From a phage, in the NCBI GenBank assembly GCA_004257845.1, contig GCA_004257845.1_4800.1: a DNA stretch of 64,000 bases. The stretch is one strand, 5' to 3'. Shown here piece after piece: positions 18,656-39,786 of this stretch. Both the position numbers and the translations under genes were made by a program. Numbering within the stretch: position 1 is the first letter of the stretch; each line of letters starts with the position of its first letter. The notes under the pieces are model-generated. The model did no database searches, was not told the origin of the DNA, and worked only from the letters and a program-made list of their open reading frames with translations.

Positions 18656-21394
18656 ATGCAAAAGTTTGACACAAACCTGTTGCAAAACCTTAAGTGGATG
18701 CAGAACAATGCACCAAACATTACATCTTTGGTGCAAAAGAAAAGTGACTGGTATGAAAGATACCAAGATCAGTTTTGGACTGACTGGTACAATAACATTT
18801 TTAACATTGACACTTGTGATGCAATGGGCATTTATATTTGGTGCGACATTCTTTGCATACCAAGAGACTTTGTGGACTTAAGCAATTATGAGCACAACTG
18901 GGCGTTTGGACCGACGCGCGACAACTTTGAAGGTGCGGACAACATCGGCGGCAACTTCTTTGGTGCTGGCGGGAAGGTTGTAAAGAATATCGAAGAAGCG
19001 CGCATACTTCTTAAGCTTCGTTATCTGACGCTTACAAGTGATGGCCGCATCGAAAGTATCAACCGCATGCTTAAGTGGATTTTTAACCGTGGAGAGGCTT
19101 GGGATTACTCTTCATCACGCTACGCATATGTGACCGACAATACTCAAGGTGCGGTGTCTTCATCTGAATCAACAAATGGCTCATTCCTTCTGTACGACTG
19201 GCAAGGGTCAACTGAGATTCAGCATGATTATAAGCAGATACTTTTAAGCCATGGCAACAATGCCGGGCTGACCATCAGCGGAGTGTCAGGCACCGTGTCA
19301 CGGATGGCGCACCCAGATTGGTACTCATGGGGAAATGGTTCCGGCACAGGGCTTGTCGGCGGCGACACCAGACAGTATGGTGGGCCTGATTACTATGGGC
19401 AGTTGTGTGGTGATTACCCAGGCGAGGCCATAGAGAATTTTGCCAACGCAGTAAGGGTCATCAAGACGGCTTCAAGCGGTGAGCCTGTGTATTCTTTGGC
19501 CAATAATCCAAGTGCCAAATCAATTTCGCTTCCTTCGCAGGCTGGCGTCAACGTTTGCTATAGCTTCTACATAAAGGTGCTTTCTGAAAATGTCGCTTCT
19601 GTTTCTGTTACAGAGAATAGTGATGCATCGAGTAATGGAAAGCTGTTTGACCCCGTCACTGGACAGTTCAACTTAGACTCGTCCTTGAGTTATTTCATCA
19701 CAGGCAAGTTTGATGGGGTGAGAAGGGAATCAAGCCGTGGTGGCATAAAAGCAATCGGCGGCGATTGGTATCGAATCTGGATTGTAGAGCAGACGGCAAC
19801 CGATGCTTCTGGAGTAAGTACCAGCTTTTCAATAGAGTTGAAGGCAACTGCCGCTGGATCAACTCAAACTCGTGAATTGCCTGAAGGGTCTGACGCTCTT
19901 TTGTTTGGATACTCGATTTGCGTCTGCGACCCTGTTCAGAATCCAAATGGACCTGAGCCTTATTTTTATGGAACGCAAAACCCTCCTTCTGACGGAACAG
20001 CAATCCTGTCTGTAACGGCGGGAACGCTCAATAACATCTCCTGTGCAAACGGACCGCTGACGACAAGAAACGGTGTAGTTGGCGAGTCATTCATGCAACC
20101 TGGCTCATCACTTGCATACTCTGGCTCAATCGGCGGCTACCCGTACCCAGGGAACGCCACGCTGATTGCAGAGACTGATGGAATCAGACGCTCATGGAAC
20201 GTTAGCAGGCTGGATGGAGCACCGCCGCCGCCGACCGCCGACTATTACATGGAATACGTCATCGGACCTTATTTCGCCAACAACCTGTCTGACAACTTTA
20301 AGACGCTAGTTGGCGACAGGAATGAAGGATTCTTGCCAGCAAATGCCGGAATACGCTGGCAGCTTTACCAAGAAGTCGCAGACTTATCTGATATTGATTT
20401 GACTGTCAGCGACATAACGGACACGCGAGTAGGATTTGAAACGGAAGGTGTTGCGTGGATTAACACTGATGGCATCATCAGAGTTGGCGGCATTAACGAG
20501 TGGCCACTGAACAACTTCAACGGTGTGATACGCCAACTTGAATCTTTGAAAGGTGTTAACCAAGTCGTCGATGGCGCTTTTGTCAACGACTATTCAATCT
20601 CCAAGGCTTCTCGCGATGACTTTGGCCGTGAAATACCGCGCGCAGCCATCACAAACTATTGGCGATATACTCAGCCTAATGATGGAACTTCATTTGGCAA
20701 TATCATTGAGGATGGCGCAAACACTGTCACAGCGACGCCAATCAGCGGTGTGCCCAACCAGTTCCCATCATTCAAGCTTTCCGCTACAATAGGGACTGTG
20801 CCAGCATCCGGTTATGCACGCGCTGTACTTGCTACTAAATACACTGGCACCCTGACTGGCCCTTTGTCATTTATCGCAATAGTCAAAAACAACACGGTTA
20901 ACGGTCAAAAACTTTTTGTAACTGTACCGGATGGGATGGGTGGCTATATCCCTAAATTCTACAACATAGGCGCAGGTGATTTGCAACGTATCGAAATTGA
21001 CCTTGCCGCTGAGATTGTTGAAGGCGCTACCTGGGATGGATCAACAGGCGGCATCAGCATCGGTTTGATATCAGGGAAAGACTTGCCGACCGAAGTTGGT
21101 ACGACTCTTGAACTTGATATTTTAAGCTTGATGCTTGTGTCTGGTAATACGATGAATGCGCTTGCAATTTCAACAAGCGAAGATTTCGCAAAGAAAACTG
21201 CGACTTCTATATACATCAAAAACCCAGGATCACTTGCCACTGGAGTTCAATTGATTGCTTCTAATGGTGATGTTGTAGCAACAGTAAACTTTCCGAGAAG
21301 TGCTGCTGGTGGTTATGTTTCAAGCATGAACATAACTGACTTAACTGGTGATTGGGCATCAACCCTTTTATCAAAAATTAAATACATCGTGTAG
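18656..21394 (+). CDS. large baseplate/tail fibre-associated structural protein
   Basis: 912-aa ORF after GAGGAA RBS; Gly/Ser/Thr-rich; upstream of tail fibre gene. Confidence 0.45.
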   Translation: MQKFDTNLLQNLKWMQNNAPNITSLVQKKSDWYERYQDQFWTDWYNNIFNIDTCDAMGIYIWCDILCIPRDFVDLSNYEHNWAFGPTRDNFEGADNIGGNFFGAGGKVVKNIEEARILLKLRYLTLTSDGRIESINRMLKWIFNRGEAWDYSSSRYAYVTDNTQGAVSSSESTNGSFLLYDWQGSTEIQHDYKQILLSHGNNAGLTISGVSGTVSRMAHPDWYSWGNGSGTGLVGGDTRQYGGPDYYGQLCGDYPGEAIENFANAVRVIKTASSGEPVYSLANNPSAKSISLPSQAGVNVCYSFYIKVLSENVASVSVTENSDASSNGKLFDPVTGQFNLDSSLSYFITGKFDGVRRESSRGGIKAIGGDWYRIWIVEQTATDASGVSTSFSIELKATAAGSTQTRELPEGSDALLFGYSICVCDPVQNPNGPEPYFYGTQNPPSDGTAILSVTAGTLNNISCANGPLTTRNGVVGESFMQPGSSLAYSGSIGGYPYPGNATLIAETDGIRRSWNVSRLDGAPPPPTADYYMEYVIGPYFANNLSDNFKTLVGDRNEGFLPANAGIRWQLYQEVADLSDIDLTVSDITDTRVGFETEGVAWINTDGIIRVGGINEWPLNNFNGVIRQLESLKGVNQVVDGAFVNDYSISKASRDDFGREIPRAAITNYWRYTQPNDGTSFGNIIEDGANTVTATPISGVPNQFPSFKLSATIGTVPASGYARAVLATKYTGTLTGPLSFIAIVKNNTVNGQKLFVTVPDGMGGYIPKFYNIGAGDLQRIEIDLAAEIVEGATWDGSTGGISIGLISGKDLPTEVGTTLELDILSLMLVSGNTMNALAISTSEDFAKKTATSIYIKNPGSLATGVQLIASNGDVVATVNFPRSAAGGYVSSMNITDLTGDWASTLLSKIKYIV

Positions 21395-23870: not shown

Positions 23871-24101
23871 TTATTTTACGGCTTCAACCTGGACGGGCGG
23901 CGCGGAACTTGTATCAATGTCTGGCAAGTCGAAGTAATACCCCGCCATGCCAATCACGCCAACAATCGCGGCCCGTGCCACCTTGTTGCTAATTGACTCC
24001 CCAATAAGCTTTACCAACAGGGACAAGATTTGAGACGTCAAAGCCTTTTTCAGCCTTTTGTTTTCTTCCAAATCTTTCTGCATAACTACCACCCATGTCA
24101 A
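23871..24101 (-). CDS. small protein with C-terminal hydrophobic segment, hypothetical
   Basis: ORF; segment AAIVGVIGMAGYYF. Confidence 0.35.
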   Translation of the reverse strand: MTWVVVMQKDLEENKRLKKALTSQILSLLVKLIGESISNKVARAAIVGVIGMAGYYFDLPDIDTSSAPPVQVEAVK

Positions 24102-24640
24102 CGCACATCCTGTGTCTTAACATTACCTGAAGCATCTCTTAAGGGCAGTGGATAGTAGGCCATTTGGTAGTCTGATACGCCTTCAACATGATAAAACACG
24201 ATTACGTCTTTGCTGTTGATGAGCATGTTAACGACATCTGATTTATCTTCTGGAGTGAGTATGAGTGCGCCGCCTGTCCTGCTGTCTACTGCAACAGGGT
24301 ATGTCTTGTCGACAAGGCCGCTGTCCAATGTATTATACCTGACAACGATTTCAGCGGCATCAACTTTTGCAATTGACATTCCGAACACAAACGAAACGAC
24401 TTGGCGACCGCGATCATTCATTACGCACATCTTTTCCTTATCAAACCTTTCCTTTATCACATCATATTTGTTCCAGCAAAATTCGAACGATTGGCCGTTG
24501 TTAAAATATCTCGTTAACACTTTGGCATTACTATTTGGCGGCGTAAACATACTTTCAGCCGCTGCACTTTTGGTGAAGAACAAGACTGTCAGCATAGCCA
24601 TGATGGTGATCAAAACAATCTTTAAAGTTTTCGATTTCAT
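24098..24640 (-). CDS. secreted/periplasmic protein, hypothetical
   Basis: N-terminal signal-peptide-like sequence MKSKTLKIVLITIMAMLTVLFFTKSAAAE. Confidence 0.45.
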   Translation of the reverse strand: MKSKTLKIVLITIMAMLTVLFFTKSAAAESMFTPPNSNAKVLTRYFNNGQSFEFCWNKYDVIKERFDKEKMCVMNDRGRQVVSFVFGMSIAKVDAAEIVVRYNTLDSGLVDKTYPVAVDSRTGGALILTPEDKSDVVNMLINSKDVIVFYHVEGVSDYQMAYYPLPLRDASGNVKTQDVR

Positions 24641-24723
24641 TATAATTCACCTTTTGATTACGAATATTAATAGTATAGGCCGAAGGTTTTGAAAGTAAAT
24701 AAGGCGAAAGGTAAATAAAAGAA

Positions 24724-24743
24724 AAGCCGGAGATTTCCGGCTT
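24724..24743 (-). terminator. intrinsic terminator downstream of ligase-like gene
   Basis: Stem AAGCCGGA / TCCGGCTT with 4-nt loop; T-rich tract follows on the minus strand. Confidence 0.5.
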
Positions 24744-24816
24744 TATGTATACACTGTATATTAAATTCTATAAAACGACGCGATAGATTATCCGCACCAA
24801 TTATTTATCTAGTGTC

Positions 24817-25779
24817 TTAAAAATACTCCATATCGGTAATATCACGGAAGCATTTATACAAAGCAGAGCGCGGCACGTCGACGATGCCAAAGTTAAAGAA
24901 TTTATACGTTAGGTATTTATCGCGATAGTTCTCGCGATTCTCCCAAAGCATTTTACGCTCTGCCATAGGCATTGAACCAGCGGAGACGCGGAAAGGAATC
25001 ATTTCACCTTTCTCATCCACATATTTTGGATTGACGACTACGAATGAGCCAAGGTATCCTTTCGCAACTAAACCTTCAGCCTCTTTTGAACGCTTGGTGC
25101 GACCCAATTCGTCAATGAATGCTTCGTTGTTGTTCTCCATCATCTCAACGAAGTCTATGATCAACCCTTCTTCATCGGTCCACGGCTTGTCCTTCCACAC
25201 ATCACGTGACTTCGGCGTCGCGCGGCCATGCTTATATTTGCCCGTCCAAGACTTGCCATACAAGCCTTCATATCCAAGCTGGTCTGCTTCGATTTGCATC
25301 GCCGCGTACTGTTCCATATTTTCGATGTTTCGATATTCGAGAGCGCGAAGGAATGGGCGTCGACCATGGTTGATGAGATGTTGATTAACTTCAGCAACTC
25401 TAGCTCGATAGTTTGCATAACGCTTTTCAAAAGGCAGATCAGGGTCGCTGAAGTCATCAAACACCCACCATGTAAAGTTAGTGATTGCATCAGTATTCAT
25501 GCATGCAGTATAGGCCTGTTGCATGACGTTCTTATCATTTGGATTGCCGTCGATTAGCTCTCCATCAAGTCCGTGAATTAGTTCACCCAAAAAGAGGAAC
25601 TCTTTTTTGATTTGAACGTTGCGCAACGGCATGCCGGAAGTGCCCATTGGCAAGTTGTCATACGCCATTGCACGTATGCCATCGACCTTGAATGACAGTC
25701 CGCAAGGCAGCGGCACGTCCTCGCCGCGCTCGATAATCTGCTTACGTTGGCAACCCTTCATTGGTTTTAATGCTGTCAT
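24817..25779 (-). CDS. ATP-dependent polynucleotide ligase (DNA or RNA ligase), nucleotidyltransferase superfamily
   Basis: Motif I KVDGIR (KxDGxR), motif III-like FLGELI, motif IV-like EEGLIID. Confidence 0.5.
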   Translation of the reverse strand: MTALKPMKGCQRKQIIERGEDVPLPCGLSFKVDGIRAMAYDNLPMGTSGMPLRNVQIKKEFLFLGELIHGLDGELIDGNPNDKNVMQQAYTACMNTDAITNFTWWVFDDFSDPDLPFEKRYANYRARVAEVNQHLINHGRRPFLRALEYRNIENMEQYAAMQIEADQLGYEGLYGKSWTGKYKHGRATPKSRDVWKDKPWTDEEGLIIDFVEMMENNNEAFIDELGRTKRSKEAEGLVAKGYLGSFVVVNPKYVDEKGEMIPFRVSAGSMPMAERKMLWENRENYRDKYLTYKFFNFGIVDVPRSALYKCFRDITDMEYF

Positions 25780-25781
25780 AA

Positions 25782-26405
25782 TTATTGTCCTGTAACTTCT
25801 CTGATCACACGGTCTTCAAGTTCCAGCTTCTTTACCATTTTGCAGGAGTGCTCATAAGCTGGATCAGTAGATTTGATGAACGTTCCGTTGTACATGACAC
25901 CTTTGCGGTCCTTGATGTCTTCGTAGGCCGCTTGCGCACAGTCGGATAAGCGAAGGCCATAATCATGAGCTACGCCGGAAAGGTAATCGACTGCGGCCAT
26001 GATGGTGACGTCAATATCCATGGTCTGATTCTTAGCAATAGCATCACCAAGCCGTCCAAGGGTCTTTGCCAGGCGAAGGATGAATGAATGAGGGTGAGCG
26101 CCTTTATCAGCACAACCGCCGCCATTAATGTTTTCGATTTCAGTACCGTTTTGCGCCGCCAGGATGGTCAACACAACAAGACAATCGCCAATGTCGTCCT
26201 TGATTGCAGCTTGCAAGTCACAGATGGCCTGCTCTGTATATCCAATTTCAGGGTCGAAGAACACAAGGTCATGGAGTTGATCAACGTGGTCGGTTAACTC
26301 CCCAAACTCGCTGATAAGCTTCGGGTATTGGTCCTTAAGGTCGCAACCTTGGATGATGTTACGGTCAGAAGCCCACTGGCGAATGTTTGCATAAATCTGT
26401 TTCAT
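25782..26405 (-). CDS. MazG-like nucleotide pyrophosphohydrolase
   Basis: EFGELTD ... DDIGDCLVVL arrangement resembling the ExxE ... ExxD metal-binding motifs of MazG/NTP-PPase domains. Confidence 0.45.
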   Translation of the reverse strand: MKQIYANIRQWASDRNIIQGCDLKDQYPKLISEFGELTDHVDQLHDLVFFDPEIGYTEQAICDLQAAIKDDIGDCLVVLTILAAQNGTEIENINGGGCADKGAHPHSFILRLAKTLGRLGDAIAKNQTMDIDVTIMAAVDYLSGVAHDYGLRLSDCAQAAYEDIKDRKGVMYNGTFIKSTDPAYEHSCKMVKKLELEDRVIREVTGQ

Positions 26406-27898: not shown

Positions 27899-28456
27899 TT
27901 ACTTTTTGCTTTTAGGCAAGGTTATTTTAGCTTCTTTGTATTCAAAAACGCTAATATCTTCACTAACTGGATTGCCCGCTTCCAGCTGTTCTTTTACAAA
28001 CGACTTCAGTGTAGCAGAATGAACGCCTTGTTTCAACGTGGCTTCAACACCATCTTCACGCAGCGCGGCAACAATCTCTTGCGCCTGTTCGATTTCTTCG
28101 CGACCGAACTCAGCCGTGACGCTGGACTTGATCAAGCCGCCGTAACCGTTGTTGACAAGCCAATCGAAAACTTTTAATTCGTTTTCTTTCTTGATTGAAG
28201 CGTTCACCTTGGACTCGACCTTGATTTTGGTCTTGTCCTCAAGCTTGATTTCGGACACGCCAAGCTCATCCATAACGCCAGGAAGCAGAACAGTTTTGAT
28301 TTCACTGATTCGCTGCTTTTGCATATCAGCTTCATCTTCAAGCTCTGTCAAAGCTTCTTGGCGTTCTGCCAGTTCAGATACTAAGCGCGCAAGGCGCTCT
28401 TGAATGCTCTCAGGAGCGACCTGCGGCAAATCATCTTCCCAATTAATATTGCTCAT
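27899..28456 (-). CDS. acidic coiled-coil protein, hypothetical
   Basis: ORF; 4-nt overlap with downstream gene. Confidence 0.4.
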   Translation of the reverse strand: MSNINWEDDLPQVAPESIQERLARLVSELAERQEALTELEDEADMQKQRISEIKTVLLPGVMDELGVSEIKLEDKTKIKVESKVNASIKKENELKVFDWLVNNGYGGLIKSSVTAEFGREEIEQAQEIVAALREDGVEATLKQGVHSATLKSFVKEQLEAGNPVSEDISVFEYKEAKITLPKSKK

Positions 28457-30314: not shown

Positions 30315-30733
30315 GACAATTCCTCTAAATACTTGATGATGTGATGGATGGACCCGCTCGCGGCGACCATAGCCAGAATCTCATGCTTAGTATATTCTTT
30401 TAATCGCAATGAAGGGTGAACTAAATAATAAGCCTTTTCAGAGTCCACCTTCAGCAACACGAATGACGAGAATTTCCAATCACTCCAAGAAGTCAAAAAG
30501 CTTTGTTGACCTTTCTCAAATGCGCTCTTGAAAGGAAGAGTGGTGGCCCTTGCAGGCCACGATTCAAAGAACTTCATTTCAAGCCAAAAGCCGCGCCCTT
30601 TCCGGTTGGTGCCGATTACGTCCGGCACACCATCACCCGTCATTGATTCGATTCTTTGAAGCTTCAAGATTGATTCTGAATGCTTCTTCAAAGGCACGAA
30701 TATGTATTTCTGTTCACGGTTATTTGTTGCCAT
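30311..30733 (-). CDS. VRR-NUC domain nuclease
   Basis: PD-(D/E)xK-like GVPDVIG...WLEMKF; 4-nt overlap with SNF2 helicase gene; start taken at internal Met just after polymerase stop. Confidence 0.5.
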   Translation of the reverse strand: MATNNREQKYIFVPLKKHSESILKLQRIESMTGDGVPDVIGTNRKGRGFWLEMKFFESWPARATTLPFKSAFEKGQQSFLTSWSDWKFSSFVLLKVDSEKAYYLVHPSLRLKEYTKHEILAMVAASGSIHHIIKYLEELS

Positions 30734-33617
30734 CTGGATACACCTGTTTGATAACGTCGACGATGAACATGTCAATGCCTTCAAGTTTGCGGCCTTTCAT
30801 CAGGAAGAATGCGCCGTTCCCGACGTTCTCTGCAATGTATTTCCCGTATTTCTGGAACTTCTCTGGACGAATCCTGAAGCGCATTGGCGAGTCGGTCGAA
30901 TCGTCCTTGCACATAAGGTCAATGAACTGAGTCTCAAGCTTGTTTCCATACTGGTCAAACTCTGCGTAGCGGCCATCAGCTTGAAGACCCTTTTTAAGTT
31001 TGCCGTGCTTTGTATAAATGCCGCGCTCAAGACGTTTACGGATGCGTGTCGCTTCGTTCTCGTCAGCCAGCACTTTCTTGGTCAACTTGCCGATCACTAT
31101 TGCACGCTCGTCATCGCCGACTTCCTTCATCTGGCGTATTGAAGCACCGGAAGTAACGCCAATCAGATAGGGGTCATTATATGCCCATCCGAACTTTGTG
31201 TGCATCTCTGTAAGGTCGCCGTATTTGACTTCAGCATTGGCCAATGCATCCTTTTGCTTTTGCGTTAAGGTTCCGGCTTCACGTGCTTCGATATACTTCA
31301 TCGCCTTCACCATGCCATATCCTTTTGCGTTCATGATGCCGCCGATTAGCTTTCCGTTAGCGATGGTCCAGTTCATTGAAGAGTGATCAGGGTCGATTGG
31401 CACATAATCCACGCCTTCCTTCGCAAGTTCACGTAATATCGCAATCGTCTGGTCTTCGTCCTTAGCAGCGCGTAAGCAAGCAGCGGCAAATTCCAACGGG
31501 TAGTGTCGCTTAAGCCACAAGGTCCAGTAGGTCACGACCGCGTATGATACGGAGTGTGACTTGTTAAAGCCCCATGACCCGAACGTCGCCATCGCTTGCC
31601 AAAGCTTTCTTGCATCCGCTTCCGGTACGCCGTTATTTATTGCTCCTGCAACGAAGTCTTCGCCAAGCTTGTTAAAGTATTCCTCACCCTTACGACCTGA
31701 CATCGCCTTACGTACAGCGGATGTTTTCGCCCAGTCAAATGAACCAATCTCTTTGACCACGGCCATGATTTGCTCTTGGTAAAGAAACACGCCGTAAGTC
31801 TCTTTTAAGTACGGCTCAAGCTGCGGCACGTCGTACTCAATCGGCGCACGTCCTGCCGCGCGTTCAATGTATTTCTGGGCCATACCGGACGACAACGGGC
31901 CAGGTCGGCCAAGTGCTGTCAGGTTATCGATTTTGTTAAAGTTATCAACGTGCACAAAGTTGGTTACTGAGCGTACAGCGTCGCCTTCAAACTGGAAGAT
32001 GCCTGACATCTTGTTTTCGTTAAGGATGTCAAGGACGCTTTGGTCATCAAGCTTGATTCCGTACAGCGTTTCAGCATCTATCACGCCAGTATCAGAAATG
32101 ATTCCGAGAGTACGAAGGCCCAGCGCATCAAGCTTCAAAAGGTTTAGGTATTCGCTGTCAGGCTTATCGATTTGCGCAATCCCTTCTGCAGTTACAGTAC
32201 AGTAATCAGAGATTGGGTCATTACACACAATGATTCCCGCTGCGTGAACACCTGTGTGAGACGGGTGAATCTCAAGGTCACCCATGCAACGCGCGGCGTC
32301 AGGATATTTCGCCACGAACTCTTGGCCCGTGGTCGTTGTTGCAAAGGTATCCTCCAGGCCGTGACCATAACGGGCGTCACCGGATGAGTATTCAAGCAGT
32401 GCGTTTTTAATGTTGGCTGTTTCGTGGTATCCAATGTTGAACTTCTTACCAACTTGAGCCATTACTGAGTTGGCCTTAAGCGTGTTGATGTTGCCAAGCT
32501 TTGCAACGTTCATTTCGCCGTATTTCTCTTTAAGATAATCAAACACCATATAGCGTTTGGTATCTTCAAAGTCGATGTCGATGTCAGGAAGGTCGGCGCG
32601 GCTTACGTCGATGAATCGGGCAAACAGTAGCTTATACGGGATTGGGTCCACTTCCGTGATGCCGAGGCAATAGCAAACAAGTGAACCAGCCGATGAGCCG
32701 CGAGCAGGACCGACGAGCATTTTTGTTTTTGCGAATCGTACAAGGTCTGCTACCACCAGAAAGTATGAGTCGAAATCTTTCAGCTGAATCTGGTGAATTT
32801 CTTCGTTGAAGCGGTCCTCGTATTCCTGAGTCCATTCTTTGATGTGACCTGCTTTGAGACGGTACTCCATGCCCTCACGCGCAAGCTTTACCATGTCACC
32901 AGCAAGGTGAATAATCGGTGCCTTACGCAATTTCAGGTCAAGTCCGACTATGCCGTTTGCTATGTCAACAGCATTGGCCGTTGCCTGATTGAGCTCATCT
33001 TCAGTCAAGATGCCTTTAAGCTGTTTTCGCAAGTCTTCCGCGTCAACGATGCAATGCGGCTTCACCGTGTCGCGCACTTCCCAAGCATAAGCAAAGTCAA
33101 CGTGCTCAGGTGAAGGCATGTGGTTGTATCCGGTTAAAACCAGCGGCCTTCCACCACTACGATGAGCCAACACCTGGCGCTTTGCCAAAAGGAACGACGA
33201 TGGGTTGACGTCTATATAGTCGTAGTCCTCTGGCCGCAGCAGTTCCACGGCACCGCCACAGAATTTAACGACGCCATCGAGCGCCCCGAACTCTGCACGG
33301 GTAAGACCACCACGCTGCGTTGCAAGTGTTGTAGCGTTGTAAAAAGATTTTAAGTCAAGGGCCAATATCCAAGCCTTCGGTTTGAATCCCTTTTTCGGGT
33401 CCGCATCAGGGTCGATGATTGGAATCTCCATTCCAAACATAGGATTAATATCATTTTTCTGGCATTCCTTTTCCCAGCGAACGTGACCCCATGTGTTGTT
33501 ATCAACTAATGCCGCGACTTCGCAGCCCAACTCTTTGAGCCGTGCTATAATTTCAGGATGCCGTCCATAAACTTCTTTGAACGTGTAACCGCTGCGAACT
33601 CTCAATTGTGGAAACAT
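30720..33617 (-). CDS. dnaE: DNA polymerase III alpha subunit-like (DnaE-type) replicative polymerase
   Basis: Catalytic palm motif LPDIDIDFED, FNKSHSVSYAVVTYWTLWLKRHYPLEF, GRPGP; N-terminal PHP-like region. Confidence 0.8.
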   Translation of the reverse strand: MFPQLRVRSGYTFKEVYGRHPEIIARLKELGCEVAALVDNNTWGHVRWEKECQKNDINPMFGMEIPIIDPDADPKKGFKPKAWILALDLKSFYNATTLATQRGGLTRAEFGALDGVVKFCGGAVELLRPEDYDYIDVNPSSFLLAKRQVLAHRSGGRPLVLTGYNHMPSPEHVDFAYAWEVRDTVKPHCIVDAEDLRKQLKGILTEDELNQATANAVDIANGIVGLDLKLRKAPIIHLAGDMVKLAREGMEYRLKAGHIKEWTQEYEDRFNEEIHQIQLKDFDSYFLVVADLVRFAKTKMLVGPARGSSAGSLVCYCLGITEVDPIPYKLLFARFIDVSRADLPDIDIDFEDTKRYMVFDYLKEKYGEMNVAKLGNINTLKANSVMAQVGKKFNIGYHETANIKNALLEYSSGDARYGHGLEDTFATTTTGQEFVAKYPDAARCMGDLEIHPSHTGVHAAGIIVCNDPISDYCTVTAEGIAQIDKPDSEYLNLLKLDALGLRTLGIISDTGVIDAETLYGIKLDDQSVLDILNENKMSGIFQFEGDAVRSVTNFVHVDNFNKIDNLTALGRPGPLSSGMAQKYIERAAGRAPIEYDVPQLEPYLKETYGVFLYQEQIMAVVKEIGSFDWAKTSAVRKAMSGRKGEEYFNKLGEDFVAGAINNGVPEADARKLWQAMATFGSWGFNKSHSVSYAVVTYWTLWLKRHYPLEFAAACLRAAKDEDQTIAILRELAKEGVDYVPIDPDHSSMNWTIANGKLIGGIMNAKGYGMVKAMKYIEAREAGTLTQKQKDALANAEVKYGDLTEMHTKFGWAYNDPYLIGVTSGASIRQMKEVGDDERAIVIGKLTKKVLADENEATRIRKRLERGIYTKHGKLKKGLQADGRYAEFDQYGNKLETQFIDLMCKDDSTDSPMRFRIRPEKFQKYGKYIAENVGNGAFFLMKGRKLEGIDMFIVDVIKQVYPDGNK

Positions 33618-34159
33618 TATTTACTCCAGATGTCATATACGCCAATTTGTTGGCAGACTTTGTGCAGTAATATTACGTCGTCTAATGCACGGTGTTTCTG
33701 TTCATATTTTCCGAAATATAATTCATACAGCTCTTGAAGCTTAACTCTTCGGCCAAAAATAGGCAAGGTTTGCTCAACTGTACAAATGTTTATTTCTGGA
33801 AAATTAACATCATCAAGCGTAAGTCCTTCGCGCTGTAGTGCATAATCAAGAATGTTTTTATCGAACGCATGGTTGTGCGCGATAGTTGCATCAGTCTTCT
33901 TGAAGATTTCTTTTAGCTGCGGGACGAAATTGATGAACGGTGGATTGCACTCAAGGTCTTCATTTGTTAATCCGGTAATCTTTGTGATAATTTCTTCAAT
34001 CACGATTTCAGGATTAATTATGAATTCAAACGTTTCAAGAATCTCTTTGCCGTCTGTCAACAGACCTGCAAATTCAATAGGGCGCGGCTGCATCCCAAGC
34101 GGCGCTTTCGGGTGCACGGTCAATCCGGTTGTTTCGAAGTCATAAGGGAGAAATAACAC
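33617..34159 (-). CDS. dnaQ: DnaQ-like 3'-5' exonuclease (DEDDh)
   Basis: Exo I YDFETTGL, Exo II IAHNHAFDKNIL, Exo III HRALDDV. Confidence 0.75.
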   Translation of the reverse strand: MLFLPYDFETTGLTVHPKAPLGMQPRPIEFAGLLTDGKEILETFEFIINPEIVIEEIITKITGLTNEDLECNPPFINFVPQLKEIFKKTDATIAHNHAFDKNILDYALQREGLTLDDVNFPEINICTVEQTLPIFGRRVKLQELYELYFGKYEQKHRALDDVILLHKVCQQIGVYDIWSK

Positions 34160-34213: not shown

Positions 34214-34765
34214 TTATACAGTGTACGGAGTACCGTCTTGATTCAAGCGCACGATAAACTTCAAATCAACGCCGATGATTTCACGCGTATCAAAGATCAC
34301 ATAGTTGTAACGACGTTGACCAGCAATGTTCGGGTTGGTATGAGAGTCAGTTACAACTTCCTGTGCAACCTGAATGCCTTCTTCGCTAAAGAACTTACGC
34401 CATTCAGCAAGTTCAGCGGCAGTTACGTGCATACCAAGATGGCTAACCTGATTGTCATGCGCATCGATATATTCGATGTTTTCGTTAATCCAGTTGCAGC
34501 CCATTGTGTAGTCAAGGATTTCAAGCTCAAGAGGCTTACCAGCGCCGCCATCAGTACCGTTGCCAGCCTGATAGTTGAAGCGCAAGTCAGCTTCATTGGT
34601 GCAATCGTCGCGACGACCTTTAAAGTCATCAGCTTCAAATACGCGACCAGTAGCAACAACATGATCATGGAACCATTCTGTCAGGCCGATTTTAGCCAAG
34701 AAATCCTGTGCGCGCTGAGCATCTGGAATTGACAGGGCGATTTGTTCAATTTTAAAATGTGGCAT
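34214..34765 (-). CDS. hypothetical protein (possibly VOC/glyoxalase-like)
   Basis: ORF; weak resemblance only. Confidence 0.3.
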   Translation of the reverse strand: MPHFKIEQIALSIPDAQRAQDFLAKIGLTEWFHDHVVATGRVFEADDFKGRRDDCTNEADLRFNYQAGNGTDGGAGKPLELEILDYTMGCNWINENIEYIDAHDNQVSHLGMHVTAAELAEWRKFFSEEGIQVAQEVVTDSHTNPNIAGQRRYNYVIFDTREIIGVDLKFIVRLNQDGTPYTV

Positions 34766-34861: not shown

Positions 34862-35545
34862 TTATTTACCAAATGGAATATCAGTACCAGACATAAAGCG
34901 CCATGCGCCAGTAATTAAGATATGGCGAATGAAGTCAGCAATTACTTGCGGCTCAGTCTCCAATCCATTCATCAATGCCTTTTTCTGGTATTCAGCAGCG
35001 TATTCAGGAGTCCAGCCGCGAGTCGCGCAAACGGCATCTTCAATCTGTTTAGACATGCCAGTGCCGCGCAACTTGTTAGGACTAATAGAGAATACCGTGA
35101 TGCCGTACTTAGGCGTAAGTTCGTGAGCCATCTGCTTGCTGATCATAAGCGCAGCAGCCTTGGATGCATTATAACACAAGCTGGACGTCATAGGAATATG
35201 CGCAGCGTTGGAAACGATGTTGATCACAAAGCCTTTGTTGTCGATAAGACTTTTCAGCGCAGCCTGAGTCGTGTTAACGAAAGAGAATGCGTTGGTGTGC
35301 ATAACGCGGTTAAACTCTTCATAGTTTACATCTTCAAACCAATTGTTAGAGTTGACACCAGCACAGTTGATCAAGCCTTCAACATCATATGGGCTTAAAA
35401 TTTCTTTCATCTGTTTAGCATCGCGGACGTCATATCCGTATGCTGAATCGATGCCAAGCACGTTATGACCGTAAGCGCCAAGGGTGTCAAAAATAGATTT
35501 ACCAAGACCGGAATTGGAACCTGTTACAACAATTACTTTTTTCAT
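34862..35545 (-). CDS. short-chain dehydrogenase/reductase (SDR)
   Basis: TGSNSGLGKS (TGxxxGxG), NCAG, catalytic YNASK (YxxxK). Confidence 0.7.
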   Translation of the reverse strand: MKKVIVVTGSNSGLGKSIFDTLGAYGHNVLGIDSAYGYDVRDAKQMKEILSPYDVEGLINCAGVNSNNWFEDVNYEEFNRVMHTNAFSFVNTTQAALKSLIDNKGFVINIVSNAAHIPMTSSLCYNASKAAALMISKQMAHELTPKYGITVFSISPNKLRGTGMSKQIEDAVCATRGWTPEYAAEYQKKALMNGLETEPQVIADFIRHILITGAWRFMSGTDIPFGK

Positions 35546-35610: not shown

Positions 35611-36483
35611 CTATTTATTGAAATTAATATTATGGGTGTTTACAAGACGTTCACACATGGCGCTATAAACACCATCGTCGTGTATTGAGTCTTCGTGCTT
35701 CAGGCCGCTGATTGCGAAGCGTGTAAGCTTGACAATCTTAAGCTCGAACAGATGCCACATGTGGTAGTCTTCCGGCGTTTTCAGCGTCACGCCATTAGGG
35801 AACAACACCTGCATAACCTGACCTACCATCACAGCGTTATCGCCATAAACGGCATTGCGCTCACGGAAGGTCGCGGCCATCGCATCAAGAATATCGGCGG
35901 CAGTTGCCGGAGATTGTTCAACTTCCACAGCCTTAGTCTCTTCTTGCCCTGTTGCGCTTGGATCAATTGCTAATTGTTGCACCACTTCACCTGCTTTGCA
36001 AAGATTAAATGTAAAAGCGATTTTATTTTGAGCAACGGAGTTATAATACAATGCTTCATCTTGCATCCGCGCGAGTACGTCTTGTCGGTCGTCGAATACA
36101 TTGATGATTCGATAATCGCCGTGCCGCAAAGCGTGCGATAGCCATGCAGATTTCATAATAGTTGATGGACGTTTGTCGCCATAGTCTCTCATCTTGATTG
36201 TAAATTCATCAAAAGGGAAAACATTGTCCAGACGTTCAAAAGTCACTTGTCTGTATTTTTCTGGCCTTGCAGTCCAATATTCAACCGCCTCACCGCGAAG
36301 AGATGCCGACTCTACTGCTGATGCAATGTGAGGATAGAACTGATCATAACCAATACCGCTGTGATAGTCATCATAGTCTGACAACGGACCTGCCACCTTG
36401 ATGCGGTCTAAGCGCCAACGGTCATCAAACAGCGTTCCGTCAAGGTCGAATACGTTTAAGATTTCGCTGTTTTTAATGCTCAT
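35611..36483 (-). CDS. HAD-superfamily phosphatase-like protein
   Basis: Motif I VFDLDGTLFD; later INVFDD. Confidence 0.5.
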   Translation of the reverse strand: MSIKNSEILNVFDLDGTLFDDRWRLDRIKVAGPLSDYDDYHSGIGYDQFYPHIASAVESASLRGEAVEYWTARPEKYRQVTFERLDNVFPFDEFTIKMRDYGDKRPSTIMKSAWLSHALRHGDYRIINVFDDRQDVLARMQDEALYYNSVAQNKIAFTFNLCKAGEVVQQLAIDPSATGQEETKAVEVEQSPATAADILDAMAATFRERNAVYGDNAVMVGQVMQVLFPNGVTLKTPEDYHMWHLFELKIVKLTRFAISGLKHEDSIHDDGVYSAMCERLVNTHNINFNK

Positions 36484-37283
36484 CCTTTTGATACTCCATC
36501 TTTAGCAACTGGATTGTTGGTGATTGGCATTGCACTCCAAAACTGGATGCGCAACTCTTCTTGCTGTGCCGTGGTATCCATCCAATCACGATACCAAGGG
36601 CAATGGGCTTTGCCATGACGAGGAAACGCGCACTTACCCATACCGATGCACTGAGGCTGTAGTAAAGGATTGGCCCACGGGTGCACCTTAAGGACTTCCG
36701 CAACCATTGCACGGAATACTTCTTGATACTCGCCTTGAGTACGCGTGCACAAGCGGTTAGAGGCCATTTGTTGCAGAGTGCGCAAGTTGAACTTTGCCAT
36801 GATATGCGTTTGCATATTAGAAGGCAACACGGCACGTGCATCTTGAATCTCTGCGCCAGCCGCGCGAAGTTCTTGGTATAGGGCGTCAATGGTTGCCATT
36901 GCATCATCCCATTTCTCTGCCAGTTCAGCAGCCTTCTCGTCATGACGAGTCCATCCCTTTGGATCATCCTCTGGGTAAGTAAATTTGGCAGGACGAATCG
37001 CATCAAATGCTGACGACTCCTGAGCGCGGCTTGTGCGTTCTTGATATGCACCTGTGCGTGTGCGCACCATCTGATGAGTCATATTCTTTGATACATCAGT
37101 GATGTCAAAGATATAGTCCACAAAGTCAAAAGGCGACTTGATTGTATCAAGCATGTAGCGCCAGTGCTCTTGCTTCTCTGATTCTGTCATCTCAGAGACT
37201 GGCTTACCAGTCATGCGCGTGTTCTTTGTTTCCAGCAAAAGGTCAAGTGCATCTTGGGTGTATCGAATTAATTCAACTTTCAT
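36480..37283 (-). CDS. thyX: flavin-dependent thymidylate synthase (ThyX)-like protein, RTR variant
   Basis: THQMVRTRTGAYQERTSR aligns with ThyX signature (Q..RHR..SY.E.S.R) but has Thr in place of His in RHR. Confidence 0.55.
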   Translation of the reverse strand: MKVELIRYTQDALDLLLETKNTRMTGKPVSEMTESEKQEHWRYMLDTIKSPFDFVDYIFDITDVSKNMTHQMVRTRTGAYQERTSRAQESSAFDAIRPAKFTYPEDDPKGWTRHDEKAAELAEKWDDAMATIDALYQELRAAGAEIQDARAVLPSNMQTHIMAKFNLRTLQQMASNRLCTRTQGEYQEVFRAMVAEVLKVHPWANPLLQPQCIGMGKCAFPRHGKAHCPWYRDWMDTTAQQEELRIQFWSAMPITNNPVAKDGVSKG

Positions 37284-37296
37284 TTTAATTATCCTA

Positions 37297-37743
37297 TTAA
37301 CGGTAATTCACTAGTTGCTGATCACCAGAGAAGGTGCAATGATAAACGAATTGTGCGTTATAAAGCAACTGAAAACTTTTCTTTGGTTCATTATTAGAAC
37401 TCATTGATGTAAAGATTTCTGCACCAGAACGGTTTTCACCAATCAGGTTAATAAAGCCGCCAGTTGAACGAGGCTGAACGAAAGTGAAACGCTGCATCCA
37501 CGGAGTCCGGTTGGCACCTTTTCCAGTGAATCCCTGAATCTGAATATTCAGACCTTCTTGCTCGTTCACACCGATGTAAGTGGTAATTGTTGCGCCAGTC
37601 GTCGCTGCGGTCTTGCCGTCCATCGCTTCGCAATCGTAAACAGCGATTGAATCGGAAGTACGGACAGCGGCTTCAGTCGCTTCCATATACATGGTTCCGA
37701 GAATAGCAGTCGCGGCAAGCGCGATTCCAGTGATGCGTTTCAT
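37297..37743 (-). CDS. secreted protein, hypothetical
   Basis: Signal-peptide-like N-terminus MKRITGIALAATAILGTMYMEA. Confidence 0.4.
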   Translation of the reverse strand: MKRITGIALAATAILGTMYMEATEAAVRTSDSIAVYDCEAMDGKTAATTGATITTYIGVNEQEGLNIQIQGFTGKGANRTPWMQRFTFVQPRSTGGFINLIGENRSGAEIFTSMSSNNEPKKSFQLLYNAQFVYHCTFSGDQQLVNYR

Positions 37744-37808: not shown

Positions 37809-38804
37809 TTATTTATTAGCAATATAAGCAAATTTTTGATAGTTATTTGCTTTGATGAGTTTTTCAACTTCAGCAAGGTCATGAGCGACGTCATCAAGCA
37901 AAATGTTTCGCCAAGTAGCGAATCGACCGACACTAAATACGTTCAAATCCATAGTCAACTGGAGCAGTAAGGCGTGGCGCAAGTCTTTCGGAATGTCGAC
38001 AATTTTGCCATACTTCTGGTCAACCTTTTCAACTTCTTCCAAAGAGATGTCATTCCATGAAAGACCAAAAGCGGTAAGAACTTCATCCACTTCTGCACGC
38101 AGCTTCATGTCGCGATAACGGGTAATGCCGCCAGCGGCTTCAACTGCTGCCGCGCTGACGCTTACCAATGGAATTGTTTCAATGATCAGCGTGTCACCAG
38201 TGATTGATGCGCGGTAAGTCCTTACAGAATAGTCAGGGAAGTAAATTGTTTGATAAAGTTCACACTTGCGCTTAATCTTAAAACGATAAACGCGAATATT
38301 TGCCTTATCAAACGAGAAGTCGAGTTTTTGATCAATACCAGCAAGCTTCATCATGACTGGCAGCGGCGATGTGTTGATGATTGGCGTCTCGCTATAGCCG
38401 CAAAGCGTGTCGACCGGAGTATTAAAGAATATACGGTCACCCAGTTTATCGACAAGTTGATCATAAAAGTCATCCGGCGCTATGTAGCGCGTAGCAGTTT
38501 GAAGCTTCATGATTGAGCGGCTGCCAAACTGGTTGGTGACTTTCATAGAGTACATGTTGGCAAGGTTAATCGGGCAGTGGTCGTGATAGTAGTTGCCGCG
38601 AAAATACACAGCCTTATCGACTGTCACGGCCTTAAAGGGGATTCCGGTAATACGGCTTACTTCTTCGCCGCGAAATCGTAGCAGCGCCTTGTGCTGCGCG
38701 ACGCGTTCGCCTGCTTCGTACACAATAGAGTTCGGAAAGTGACAAGCCGTGATAAGTCCTGCCAGTCCGCCGCCGATAATCATTACAGGTTGTTTCATGT
38801 TCAT
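37809..38804 (-). CDS. FAD/NAD(P)-binding Rossmann-fold oxidoreductase-like protein
   Basis: N-terminal VMIIGGGLAGLITA (GxGxxG) followed by IVYEAG. Confidence 0.5.
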   Translation of the reverse strand: MNMKQPVMIIGGGLAGLITACHFPNSIVYEAGERVAQHKALLRFRGEEVSRITGIPFKAVTVDKAVYFRGNYYHDHCPINLANMYSMKVTNQFGSRSIMKLQTATRYIAPDDFYDQLVDKLGDRIFFNTPVDTLCGYSETPIINTSPLPVMMKLAGIDQKLDFSFDKANIRVYRFKIKRKCELYQTIYFPDYSVRTYRASITGDTLIIETIPLVSVSAAAVEAAGGITRYRDMKLRAEVDEVLTAFGLSWNDISLEEVEKVDQKYGKIVDIPKDLRHALLLQLTMDLNVFSVGRFATWRNILLDDVAHDLAEVEKLIKANNYQKFAYIANK

Positions 38805-38937: not shown

Positions 38938-39786
38938 TTATTCTGCTTGATCGTCGTGCTCTTCGGCATCTGCTTCGGATTCAACATCGATGAACTCGAT
39001 GTGGCCCATCTCTTCCAGTTTGCTCAGGTAAGAGCGAACTGAAGCGCCAAACAGCTGATCTTTAACTTTTTCACCCAGCTCGTCGATAGACTGCGGCTGA
39101 CCGATTTCACCTTCTTTGATCGCAGCCAGTACGCGACCACGGGTGGAATGTTCTTGCGGCTGGCTCAGGCCGTTTCCGGTGTAAACAAAGTGAGTTGCTT
39201 TAGCGCGACGCTGACCATTAGCTTTCTTGGCGGCTTTACGCTCTGCAATCGCTTTGCGACGCTCTTCAGCTTCTTTCTTACGCTGTTCTTTCTGTTGTTC
39301 TGCAGCTTCTTTCGCCGCAATCTTAGCAGCTTCACGCTCTGCCTTGCGTTTCGCTTTCGCTTCTTCTTTAGCCTTTTCTTTTTCGGCTTTCGCTTCTGCA
39401 CGGGCCTGATCACGTTCAGCCTTTTTCGCCGCAGCTTGTTCAGCTTTCAGGCGCTTGGCTTCTTCTTTCGCCTTTGCCTTTTCAATTTCTTTAGCGGCTT
39501 TAGCGGCTTCACGCTCTGCCTTCTTAGCAGCAGCCTTTTCAGCACGCTCTGCAGCCTTCTTAGCGGCTTCTTCAGCACGCTTCTGAGCCTTCTCGTCAGC
39601 AGCCTGCTTGCGTTTCAGCGCAGCTTCTTCACGCTTGGCTTGTTTTTCCTGCTCACGCTTCTGGCGTTTTTCTTCGGCTTCTTTCTTTTTAGCCAGGCGT
39701 TTTTCTTCAGCCACGCGACGACGTTCTGCTGCAGCTGCTTGTTTTTCTTCTTTAGATAATACTTTGATTGCTTCGGCCATATTCAC
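38938..39786 (-). CDS. Lys/Ala/Glu-rich low-complexity protein with C-terminal globular domain (histone H1-like composition)
   Basis: About 190 aa of KAE-rich repeats (KKAAERAEKAAAKKAEREAAKAAKE...) then non-repetitive C-terminus; strong terminator downstream. Confidence 0.5.
   Translation of the reverse strand: MNMAEAIKVLSKEEKQAAAAERRRVAEEKRLAKKKEAEEKRQKREQEKQAKREEAALKRKQAADEKAQKRAEEAAKKAAERAEKAAAKKAEREAAKAAKEIEKAKAKEEAKRLKAEQAAAKKAERDQARAEAKAEKEKAKEEAKAKRKAEREAAKIAAKEAAEQQKEQRKKEAEERRKAIAERKAAKKANGQRRAKATHFVYTGNGLSQPQEHSTRGRVLAAIKEGEIGQPQSIDELGEKVKDQLFGASVRSYLSKLEEMGHIEFIDVESEADAEEHDDQAE

Follow-up and report, generated by a model that had tools for sequence, protein, structure and literature searches.

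We analysed a 64,000-nucleotide stretch of phage DNA (the window; GenBank assembly GCA_004257845.1, contig GCA_004257845.1_4800.1) that represents most of the genome of a Wifcevirus, a myovirus of Escherichia coli and Shigella distantly related to the PB1-like Pbunavirus phages of Pseudomonas. The open reading frame (ORF) at 36480–37283, on the minus strand like all other window features described here, encodes a genuine member of the Thy1/ThyX family of flavin-dependent thymidylate synthases (267 aa), which belongs to a large, coherent, phage-only subfamily. Across this subfamily two catalytic residues of canonical ThyX have been lost together, and the gene is paired near-obligately with one for a flavoprotein resembling UDP-galactopyranose mutase (UGM). 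We see about an even chance that the two proteins start a pathway of thymidine hypermodification.

The gene is already called 'thymidylate synthase' in GenBank records. It begins with an ATG, with an AGGA ribosome-binding site 8 nt upstream, and its stop codon overlaps the start of the downstream gene, which encodes a HAD phosphatase fusion, as ATGA. The surrounding 5 kb are 96% identical to phage VerenaGrendelmeier (Bas101) and 92–96% identical to about 29 other records.

A phage ThyX subfamily with a changed active site

An earlier note on this DNA, written by a model that saw only the letters and a list of their ORFs, had described a ThyX-like motif in which the RHR signature reads RTR, and had proposed either altered chemistry or the mis-assignment of a divergent family. 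Mis-assignment can be set aside. The Pfam profile PF02511 (Thy1) aligned with the protein end to end (profile positions 2–191 of 191), scoring 107.1 bits against a gathering cut-off of 24.8 bits (E = 1.2e-30); PHROG 85 ('thymidylate synthase') matched at E = 5e-38, and a profile of the protein and its relatives picked up 19 distinct solved ThyX sequences. A Pfam scan of the protein gave no ThyA-family match. The AlphaFold model, of moderate quality (predicted local distance difference test (pLDDT) score of 77.6), has the ThyX fold according to Foldseek, with Thermotoga maritima ThyX (1o26) as the top match (E = 2e-9, probability 1.0, template modelling (TM) scores 0.46/0.55) and ThyX chains throughout the top 50 PDB matches listed. 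The protein is indeed atypical, as had been suspected: it narrowly missed the cut-off of the NCBIfam equivalog TIGR02170 (thyX), by 4.8 bits (83.1 versus 87.9), which is consistent with the loss of the residues corresponding to T. maritima His53 and Tyr91.

The substitution itself was confirmed. In HMMER alignments, R74-T75-R76 (37056–37064), within the motif region THQMVRTRTGAYQERTSR (37026–37079, coordinates confirmed by translation), falls on R78-H79-R80 of T. maritima ThyX, with T75 in place of H79. We searched a profile of 16 relatives, in which RTR is invariant at identities down to 59%, against 1.84 billion representative proteins and obtained 4,691 matches at E ≤ 1e-3 and 87 at E ≤ 1e-30. 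The best 150 of the 4,691 were aligned to the profile, and residues were counted in the 130 representatives covering both motif regions. The middle residue was T in 69 of them, H in 28, Q in 15, S in 8 and N in 6. RTR is the majority state of this subfamily, and the histidine is one of several canonical residues that have been given up. Among the studied canonical ThyX proteins examined (T. maritima, T. thermophilus and mycobacteriophage L5 gp48) RTR was absent; it is in the majority only in the uncharacterised phage subfamily. The idea that RTR by itself marks altered chemistry did not survive, because the position varies freely and members that keep RHR have lost the same catalytic residues and have the same partner gene (31 of 34). 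Altered chemistry is plausible, but on account of the loss of His53 and Tyr91, which the earlier note had not seen, any more than the four cysteines and the near-obligate pairing described below.

In canonical ThyX, the RHR residues hydrogen-bond the AMP phosphate, the ribityl chain and the flavin mononucleotide phosphate of flavin adenine dinucleotide (FAD); the first arginine additionally contacts the isoalloxazine and deoxyuridine monophosphate (dUMP), and the histidine touches the FAD phosphate and ribityl, not the reacting atoms (PMC6514825). This histidine thus serves to anchor the cofactor, and Thr, Ser, Asn or Gln could plausibly take over the contact. The conserved tyrosine is a lid over dUMP C5 and flavin N5 that shields them from solvent (PMC6514825). 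Tyr91 and Ser88 have been termed 'strictly conserved' and critical, mutation of Tyr91 makes flavin oxidation about 1000-fold slower, and His53 stacks on the folate pterin or the reduced flavin and gates the active site through a hydrogen bond to Tyr91 (PMC11940539).

At the position of Tyr91, just outside the motif region, our protein has Ala87 (37023–37025), and the subfamily has V, A, F, T or I, with Tyr in 5 of 130 representatives. Ile48 (37140–37142) occupies the position of His53 in sequence alignments; among the 119 representatives covering it, 114 have I, L or V and 2 have His. T. maritima R74 is replaced by His, as in 111 representatives, and H178 by Arg (Arg, Gln or Lys across the subfamily). 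The substrate-binding constellation is kept: T. maritima Q75, R78, R80, R90, R147, N163, R165 and R174 correspond to Q71, R74, R76, R86, R150, N166, R168 and R177, and the six arginines, like Q75, are 92–100% conserved among the 130 representatives. The motif region also retains T84, S85 and R86. Thr84 aligns with T. maritima Ser88 and is followed by an invariant Ser85, in a loop where the alignment could shift by one residue; the active-site loop (residues 75–86) is divergent and was modelled with low confidence. It is the combined loss of His53 and Tyr91 that bears on the reaction chemistry; the RHR change is not the important feature.

The subfamily is wide. The Pbunavirus protein is 49% identical to the query, podoviruses of Ralstonia (RTR, Tyr to Val) and Vibrio (RNR, Tyr to Ile) have members, and so do the actinophages Gordonia phage Ranch (RQR), Mycobacterium phage Onyinye (RSR) and Streptomyces phage Dryad (RSR). 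Mycobacteriophage L5 gp48, reportedly demonstrated to be a functional ThyX, has the canonical His/RHR/Tyr set. Several members (P0161, P0169 and P0251) are interrupted by inteins directly before Thy1 profile position 71, near R-x-R. A separate RQR/Phe branch (P0226, P0245–P0269) has N-terminal extensions of 100–280 aa that belong to no Pfam family, and one of its members adjoins a vWA-TerF-like gene. We had considered fusion partners as a clue to function, and the long members held only inteins or such extensions. In a scan of species-representative genomes, the only cellular match was a 595-bp contig of Xanthomonas pisi DSM 18956 (NZ_JPLE01000216), with 55 residues 95% identical to the N-terminus of the ThyX-like protein; it is probably phage DNA within the assembly. 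The scan used patterns specific to the close clade and therefore shows only that this clade is phage-borne. Contigs of metagenomic representatives were too short for genomic context to be read. As far as the literature we searched shows, the subfamily with its partner gene and probable metal site has not previously been recognised as distinct.

About half of the subfamily members, the query included, bear a four-cysteine signature (R-L-C, 26–32 residues, C-x5-C-x-F-P-x-[YF]-x(1-4)-C-P), which lies at 36600–36749 in the window as C179 followed by C212-x5-C218-A-F-P-R and C228-P. All four cysteines are invariant in the clade alignment. C179 lies within R-L-C-x-R-T-Q-G-E at the position of T. maritima D176, two residues past the catalytic R174, and C212, C218 and C228 sit in a C-terminal extension that canonical ThyX lacks, modelled at a pLDDT of about 90 (residues 190–250). 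C212 and C218 were present together in 60 of the 73 representatives with C179 and in none of the 57 without it (Fisher p = 1.4e-24). Members without C179 have Ser, Gly or Asn at that position and no C-terminal tail; the site thus characterises one branch rather than the subfamily in general. Judging from the sequence pattern, the four cysteines probably form a metal site, Fe-S or Zn.

A near-obligate flavoprotein partner

The partner gene (37809–38804; PHROG 4828) encodes a 331-aa protein with an N-terminal GxGxxG motif. Its AlphaFold model (pLDDT 84) matches two-domain FAD enzymes, nearest to UGM and then to protoporphyrinogen and amine oxidases. Searches against Pfam (E ≤ 1) and NCBIfam gave no match, the UGM family (GLF) included, and PDB sequence searches aligned the dinucleotide-binding motif only. 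The protein has many invariant arginines. In a PB1-like phage, too, its gene lies upstream of that for the ThyX-like protein (41% identity), and the podoviruses of Ralstonia (38%) and Vibrio (35%) have the two in the same order.

To gauge the pairing we used two locus samples, one seeded on the partner gene (80 diverse viral contigs) and one on ThyX-like genes of the RHR type (80 loci). In the partner-seeded sample, 75 of 80 loci have, further downstream on that strand, a ThyX-like gene that often abuts or overlaps the partner gene; in the other 5 the contig ends within 1.9 kb. The motif reads R-[T/S/N]-R in each of the 65 distinct ThyX-like neighbours from this sample. The RHR-seeded control ruled out RTR as the mark of a partnered class: the partner lies directly upstream in 74 of its 80 loci, and in 31 of 34 among those with RHR. 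Since RHR-type members are partnered as well, the pairing belongs to the whole subfamily. With both samples pooled, the partner is upstream in 149 of 160 viral loci, and all exceptions but one are near a contig end; the pairing is near-obligate. The neighbourhood of L5 gp48 contains no such flavoprotein gene nearby, and we know of no canonical ThyX that needs a protein partner.

Three actinophages show an analogous arrangement, in which a Rossmann 'oxidoreductase' of about 265 aa is followed by a phosphatase/PNK-like/pyrophosphohydrolase gene, a DnaE-type polymerase and the ThyX-like gene. We compared these oxidoreductases (Ranch gp69, Onyinye gp78 and Dryad gp60) with the partner, and homology could not be established: HHalign aligned the GxGxxG segment only, and their profile matches four partner ORFs only weakly.

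The FAD-binding neighbour that the earlier note had mentioned is thus real and linked to the ThyX-like gene, given its GxGxxG motif, its two-domain FAD fold and its presence in 149 of 160 loci. The suggested role of supplying or recycling flavin is possible and is not specifically supported, because the nearest structural match is UGM and not a flavin reductase.

Proposed thymidine hypermodification and rival readings

Pbunavirus DNA contains thymidine-derived nucleosides of 362 Da (phage F8) and 390 Da (phage 14-1), which replace about a quarter of the thymidines and were read as derivatives of a tetrose alcohol and of a cyclised aldopentose; as the authors emphasise, these phages are without the genes earlier implicated in hypermodification, and they assigned no biosynthetic genes (PMC12191111). 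Native nanopore sequencing fails specifically for Pbunavirus, and PCR rescues it (bioRxiv 10.64898/2026.07.08.737226). Wifceviruses are reported to be insensitive to all tested restriction systems except EcoP1_I, with no known protection mechanism (PMC11990801). Papers on vB_Eco4M-7 contain nothing on DNA modification, and one on PaP1 was set aside because that phage is unrelated. We infer that the ThyX-like gene and its partner form the missing entry point of Pbunavirus-type thymidine hypermodification.

In such a pathway, the ThyX-like enzyme would stack reduced flavin on dUMP, and uracil C5 would receive a carbon unit from flavin N5. With the tyrosine lid gone, and with it the histidine that stacks on folate, a plain reduction to methyl may no longer be the last step; the electrophilic 5-methylene intermediate would be trapped, in the simplest case by water, and 5-hydroxymethyl-dUMP would result. 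This would make the enzyme a flavin-dependent counterpart of the ThyA-type dUMP hydroxymethylases, with which all known pathways of thymidine hypermodification begin. A sugar-derived group could be processed or attached by the UGM-like flavoprotein, by the HAD phosphatase (35611–36483), whose gene is translationally coupled, and, in Wifcevirus, by a short-chain dehydrogenase/reductase (SDR, 'FabG-like'; 34862–35545), while a MazG-like nucleotide pyrophosphohydrolase (25782–26405) in the same replication block would trim the nucleotide pool. The end product would be sugar-adducted thymidine as in Pbunavirus DNA, which could explain the restriction insensitivity of Wifcevirus. By mass arithmetic, 362 and 390 Da correspond to 5-hydroxymethyl-deoxyuridine (5-hmdU, 258) plus a tetritol or pentose minus water; deoxyuridine (dU) alkylated at C5 by a pentose- or hexose-derived chain is an isomeric alternative.

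The kept substrate-binding set, the lost catalytic pair, the TIGR02170 score below cut-off and the near-obligate partner all support the hypermodification reading, as do the presence of the module in Pbunavirus and the restriction insensitivity of Wifcevirus. So does the gene content. A tblastn search with E. coli ThyA brought up no ThyA-type enzyme, with no match better than E = 1.6, in the window or in F8; the same holds for 14-1, of which the 30–66 kb half was searched, and for Bas101, of which the first 50 kb were. Beyond polymerase, helicases, primases and ligase, F8 has as recognisable metabolic enzymes only MazG, the two proteins of the pair and the HAD fusion, and no enzyme domains were seen in its early-region ORFs.

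We also asked how far restriction insensitivity could be explained otherwise, comparing site counts with second-order Markov simulations. GATC is strongly depleted in the window (1–64000; 102 sites versus 279 ± 17 expected), and counts were low for BamHI (0 versus 9), XbaI (0 versus 4.5), EcoRV (5 versus 20) and SphI (8 versus 21), with no depletion of HindIII and ApaLI sites. The window nevertheless retains 15 EcoRI, 5 EcoRV and 5 EcoKI sites; given the persisting EcoRI and EcoKI sites, avoidance is not sufficient and was rejected as the sole cause of the insensitivity. Anti-restriction proteins may also lie behind it.

Several points weigh against hypermodification. Modified thymidine has been reported from Pbunavirus and not from Wifcevirus, and the Pbunavirus preprint is silent on ThyX (PMC12191111). 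Our literature search found no experimental report on this protein or any subfamily member. The module also occurs widely among phages without any known DNA modification. In Pbunavirus the modification is partial (about 25%) and TG-specific, a pattern that calls for a DNA-level step which an enzyme built for a free 5'-monophosphate cannot supply, so additional DNA-level enzymes are required whether the protein starts hypermodification or makes deoxythymidine monophosphate (dTMP). Since three quarters of the thymidines are ordinary, a genuine dTMP supply would still be useful; it is common for phages to carry ThyX simply as a means of raising dTMP, and neither the window nor the relatives examined have a second thymidylate synthase beside the ThyX-like one. 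The literature ties Tyr91 to the methylene-transfer step itself, and its loss could impair any C5 transfer, not the final reduction alone. Finally, a normal thymidylate synthase might make up for the losses through His70 or Arg181, which are specific to the subfamily, and the partner could be a dedicated flavin reductase.

These last points belong to the most serious competitor, to which we give a substantial probability, though one short of even: the protein could be a divergent but genuine flavin-dependent thymidylate synthase that converts dUMP to dTMP and raises dTTP during very fast replication. His53, His79 and Tyr91 would be functionally replaced, for example by His70 and Arg181, and the UGM-like flavoprotein would be an NAD(P)H-dependent reductase for the flavin, possibly passing electrons via the four-cysteine site. 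The strong Thy1 match, the ThyX fold, the conservation of every dUMP- and FAD-binding arginine and a TIGR02170 score only 4.8 bits short all argue for it, and the RHR histidine, which only contacts FAD phosphate and ribityl, could be substituted as described above. The gene is the sole thymidylate-synthase-like gene in the window and relatives, it lies within the replication block beside the polymerase, inteins, which favour essential replication enzymes, occur in several members, and most Pbunavirus thymidines are canonical. In its favour, too, eukaryotic UGM is known to bind NAD(P)H (PDB 5vwt/5vwu). On the other side, two residues termed strictly conserved and kinetically critical are gone (PMC11940539), and the pairing is close to obligatory, unlike anything known for canonical ThyX. 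The fold of the partner is that of UGM and protoporphyrinogen oxidase and no known flavin-reductase fold, its invariant arginines suggest a phosphorylated substrate of its own, and the cysteines cannot be a general electron path, because members without them have the partner too. The E. coli and Pseudomonas aeruginosa hosts, moreover, already have ThyA.

Three further readings carry less weight. Rather improbable, in our judgement, is a route in which the ThyX-like enzyme uses a sugar-derived carbon and no methylene-tetrahydrofolate to produce, in one flavin step, a C-C-linked polyhydroxyalkyl 'thymidine' at the nucleotide level. UGM-type flavoenzymes form an adduct in which sugar C1 is bound to flavin N5 as an iminium; here, the C1 of an aldose, for example, would be held in this way and attacked by dUMP C5, the partner might prepare this species or pass it on, and an Fe-S cluster at the four cysteines would keep the flavin in its reduced state. 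The loss of the tyrosine lid and of the histidine that stacks on folate would let the enzyme accept such a carbon. By calculation, alkylating dU (228) reductively with an aldopentose yields a mass of 362 Da, as for the F8 nucleoside, and the cyclised hexose-derived analogue has one of 390 Da, as for that of 14-1; both masses would fit an isomeric ether link to 5-hmdU just as well. We would be surprised if the same fold acted on another pyrimidine nucleotide such as deoxycytidine monophosphate (dCMP) or UMP. The neofunctionalised ThyX paralog PolB, with its relaxed substrate choice (PMC5954106), offers a precedent, and the divergent loop 75–86, modelled with low confidence, also speaks for it. 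Yet T. maritima R90, R147 and R174, which bind the uracil carbonyls and the phosphate, are invariant, there is no acidic replacement such as the amino group of cytosine would need, the known modification in relatives is on thymidine and not on cytidine, and the gene sits in a DNA-replication block. Just as hard to credit is a catalytically dead ThyX fold that serves nucleotide or flavin binding, regulation or as a structural subunit for the partner. In its favour, the protein has lost residues regarded as essential to turnover (PMC11940539); against it, about 12 active-site positions are invariant or nearly so across sequences down to 30% identity, which indicates selection on catalysis and not on binding alone. 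The invariant uracil- and phosphate-binding arginines make both of these last readings unlikely.

The replication block and comparison with known systems

The HAD fusion downstream of the ThyX-like gene consists of a PNKP-type phosphatase (Pfam HAD_PNKP, E = 5e-8; PHROG 4889) and a C-terminal domain of about 100 aa, and is conserved in PB1-like and Ralstonia phages. The C-terminal domain (residues ~190–290) is 46–48% identical in these phages and found no match in Pfam or the PDB. We searched for genes that might set the adduct type, comparing F8 (362 Da) with 14-1 (390 Da) over the replication half of 14-1. The most divergent proteins were ORF070 of F8 (56% identity) and the HAD phosphatase (80%), the latter being the most divergent enzyme of the module. 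ORF070 of F8 (23894–25090 of the F8 sequence compared; ORF70 of 14-1, 23997–25301 of its counterpart) stands out among proteins that are mostly 90–99% identical; it is coiled-coil and cysteine-rich/zinc-ribbon-like, has no enzyme domain, is absent from Wifcevirus and may be under diversifying selection.

A 148-aa ORF (37297–37743) with a signal-peptide-like N-terminus separates the partner gene from the ThyX-like gene. Neither Pfam nor PHROG matched it, and tblastn found no counterpart in the PB1-like (PA01), Ralstonia and Vibrio loci; it is Wifcevirus-specific, and its membership in the module is uncertain. The SDR (Pfam adh_short, E = 3e-31) has a 31%-identical homolog, gp75 ('oxidoreductase', 19371–20063), in the replication region of another phage with a ThyX-like gene, Gordonia phage Ranch. 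Both the SDR and a weakly glyoxalase/VOC-like protein (34214–34765; Pfam Glyoxalase_4, E = 0.004, below cut-off) are possible accessory enzymes. The MazG-like protein (PHROG 1992, E = 3e-62) has a homolog in phage F8 (33% identity).

The replication core accompanies the pair of ThyX-like and partner genes in distant phages, and a DnaE-like polymerase adjoins the actinophage ThyX-like genes. In the window this core comprises a DnaE-type DNA polymerase III alpha (30720–33617), 61% identical in PB1-like, 41% in Ralstonia and 36% in Vibrio phages, and a 3′-5′ exonuclease (33617–34159). The block further holds helicases and a ligase, as well as a Pam3 gp34-like protein (PF23977; 26979–27839) and a Pam3 gp33-like protein (DUF7307; 27899–28456), which are 54% and 40% identical in PB1-like phages, respectively. 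A Lys/Ala/Glu-rich protein of 282 aa (38938–39786; PHROG 4765, 'TolA protein' in some records) is conserved with PB1-like phages only in its C-terminal ~95 residues (50%).

Pbunaviruses are among the phages most used in therapy against P. aeruginosa. According to two recent preprints, their adducts block restriction enzymes, attract a new class of defence nuclease and defeat native nanopore sequencing. The ThyX-like/UGM-like pair, widespread and previously unremarked, is the most obvious candidate for making them, and the question extends to an E. coli Wifcevirus with a tractable K-12-derived host and an unexplained restriction resistance. If the hypermodification reading is true, there would be a flavin-dependent entry to thymidine hypermodification parallel to the ThyA-type hydroxymethylases, and hundreds of entries named 'thymidylate synthase ThyX' would be mis-named. 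If the protein is an ordinary thymidylate synthase instead, ThyX would work without residues now deemed essential, by means of a partner flavoprotein and possibly a metal cluster, which would bear on ThyX mechanism and inhibitor design.

With canonical ThyX (T. maritima TM0449, Mycobacterium tuberculosis ThyX and L5 gp48) the protein shares the Pfam family, the fold and the Arg/Gln constellation for dUMP and FAD, as well as, probably, a conservative replacement of Ser88 by Thr84, and with L5 gp48 also the context of a phage replication module. It differs from them in the changes of RHR to RTR, His53 to Ile, Tyr91 to Ala, R74 to His and H178 to Arg, in the change of D176 to a cysteine of the four-cysteine site, in the C-terminal extension of about 60 aa, in the UGM-like neighbour gene and in a score below the NCBIfam cut-off. 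The proposed logic is analogous to that of the ThyA-type pyrimidine hydroxymethylases, which include those of the 5-hmdU phages M6, ViI, SPO1 and phiW-14 and the dCMP hydroxymethylase of T4. ThyA-type enzymes use a cysteine nucleophile, with folate as the reductant; their fold and mechanism are unrelated to those of the ThyX-like protein, and the likeness would be one of function. In the ThyA-homolog hydroxymethylases, the C5-methylene intermediate is hydrated, not reduced, as the first step of base hypermodification (PMC8989533). PolB, a streptomycete ThyX paralog that methylates UMP for polyoxin synthesis, is likewise a ThyX-fold enzyme outside housekeeping thymidylate synthesis (PMC5954106); it differs in being bacterial, in acting on UMP/dUMP and in that it still methylates. 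The partner shares with UGM the FAD-binding Rossmann domain and the overall fold, but it is shorter (331 aa versus 365–510) and without a Pfam match, and protoporphyrinogen and amine oxidases score almost equally. The RNA uracil-C5 modifiers TrmFO, RlmFO and MnmEG use the same flavin-N5 iminium carbon relay as that proposed here, and for MnmEG capture of the exocyclic methylene by a non-hydride nucleophile has been proposed (PMC8989533), although these enzymes have another fold, act on polynucleotides and have no sequence relationship to the ThyX-like protein.

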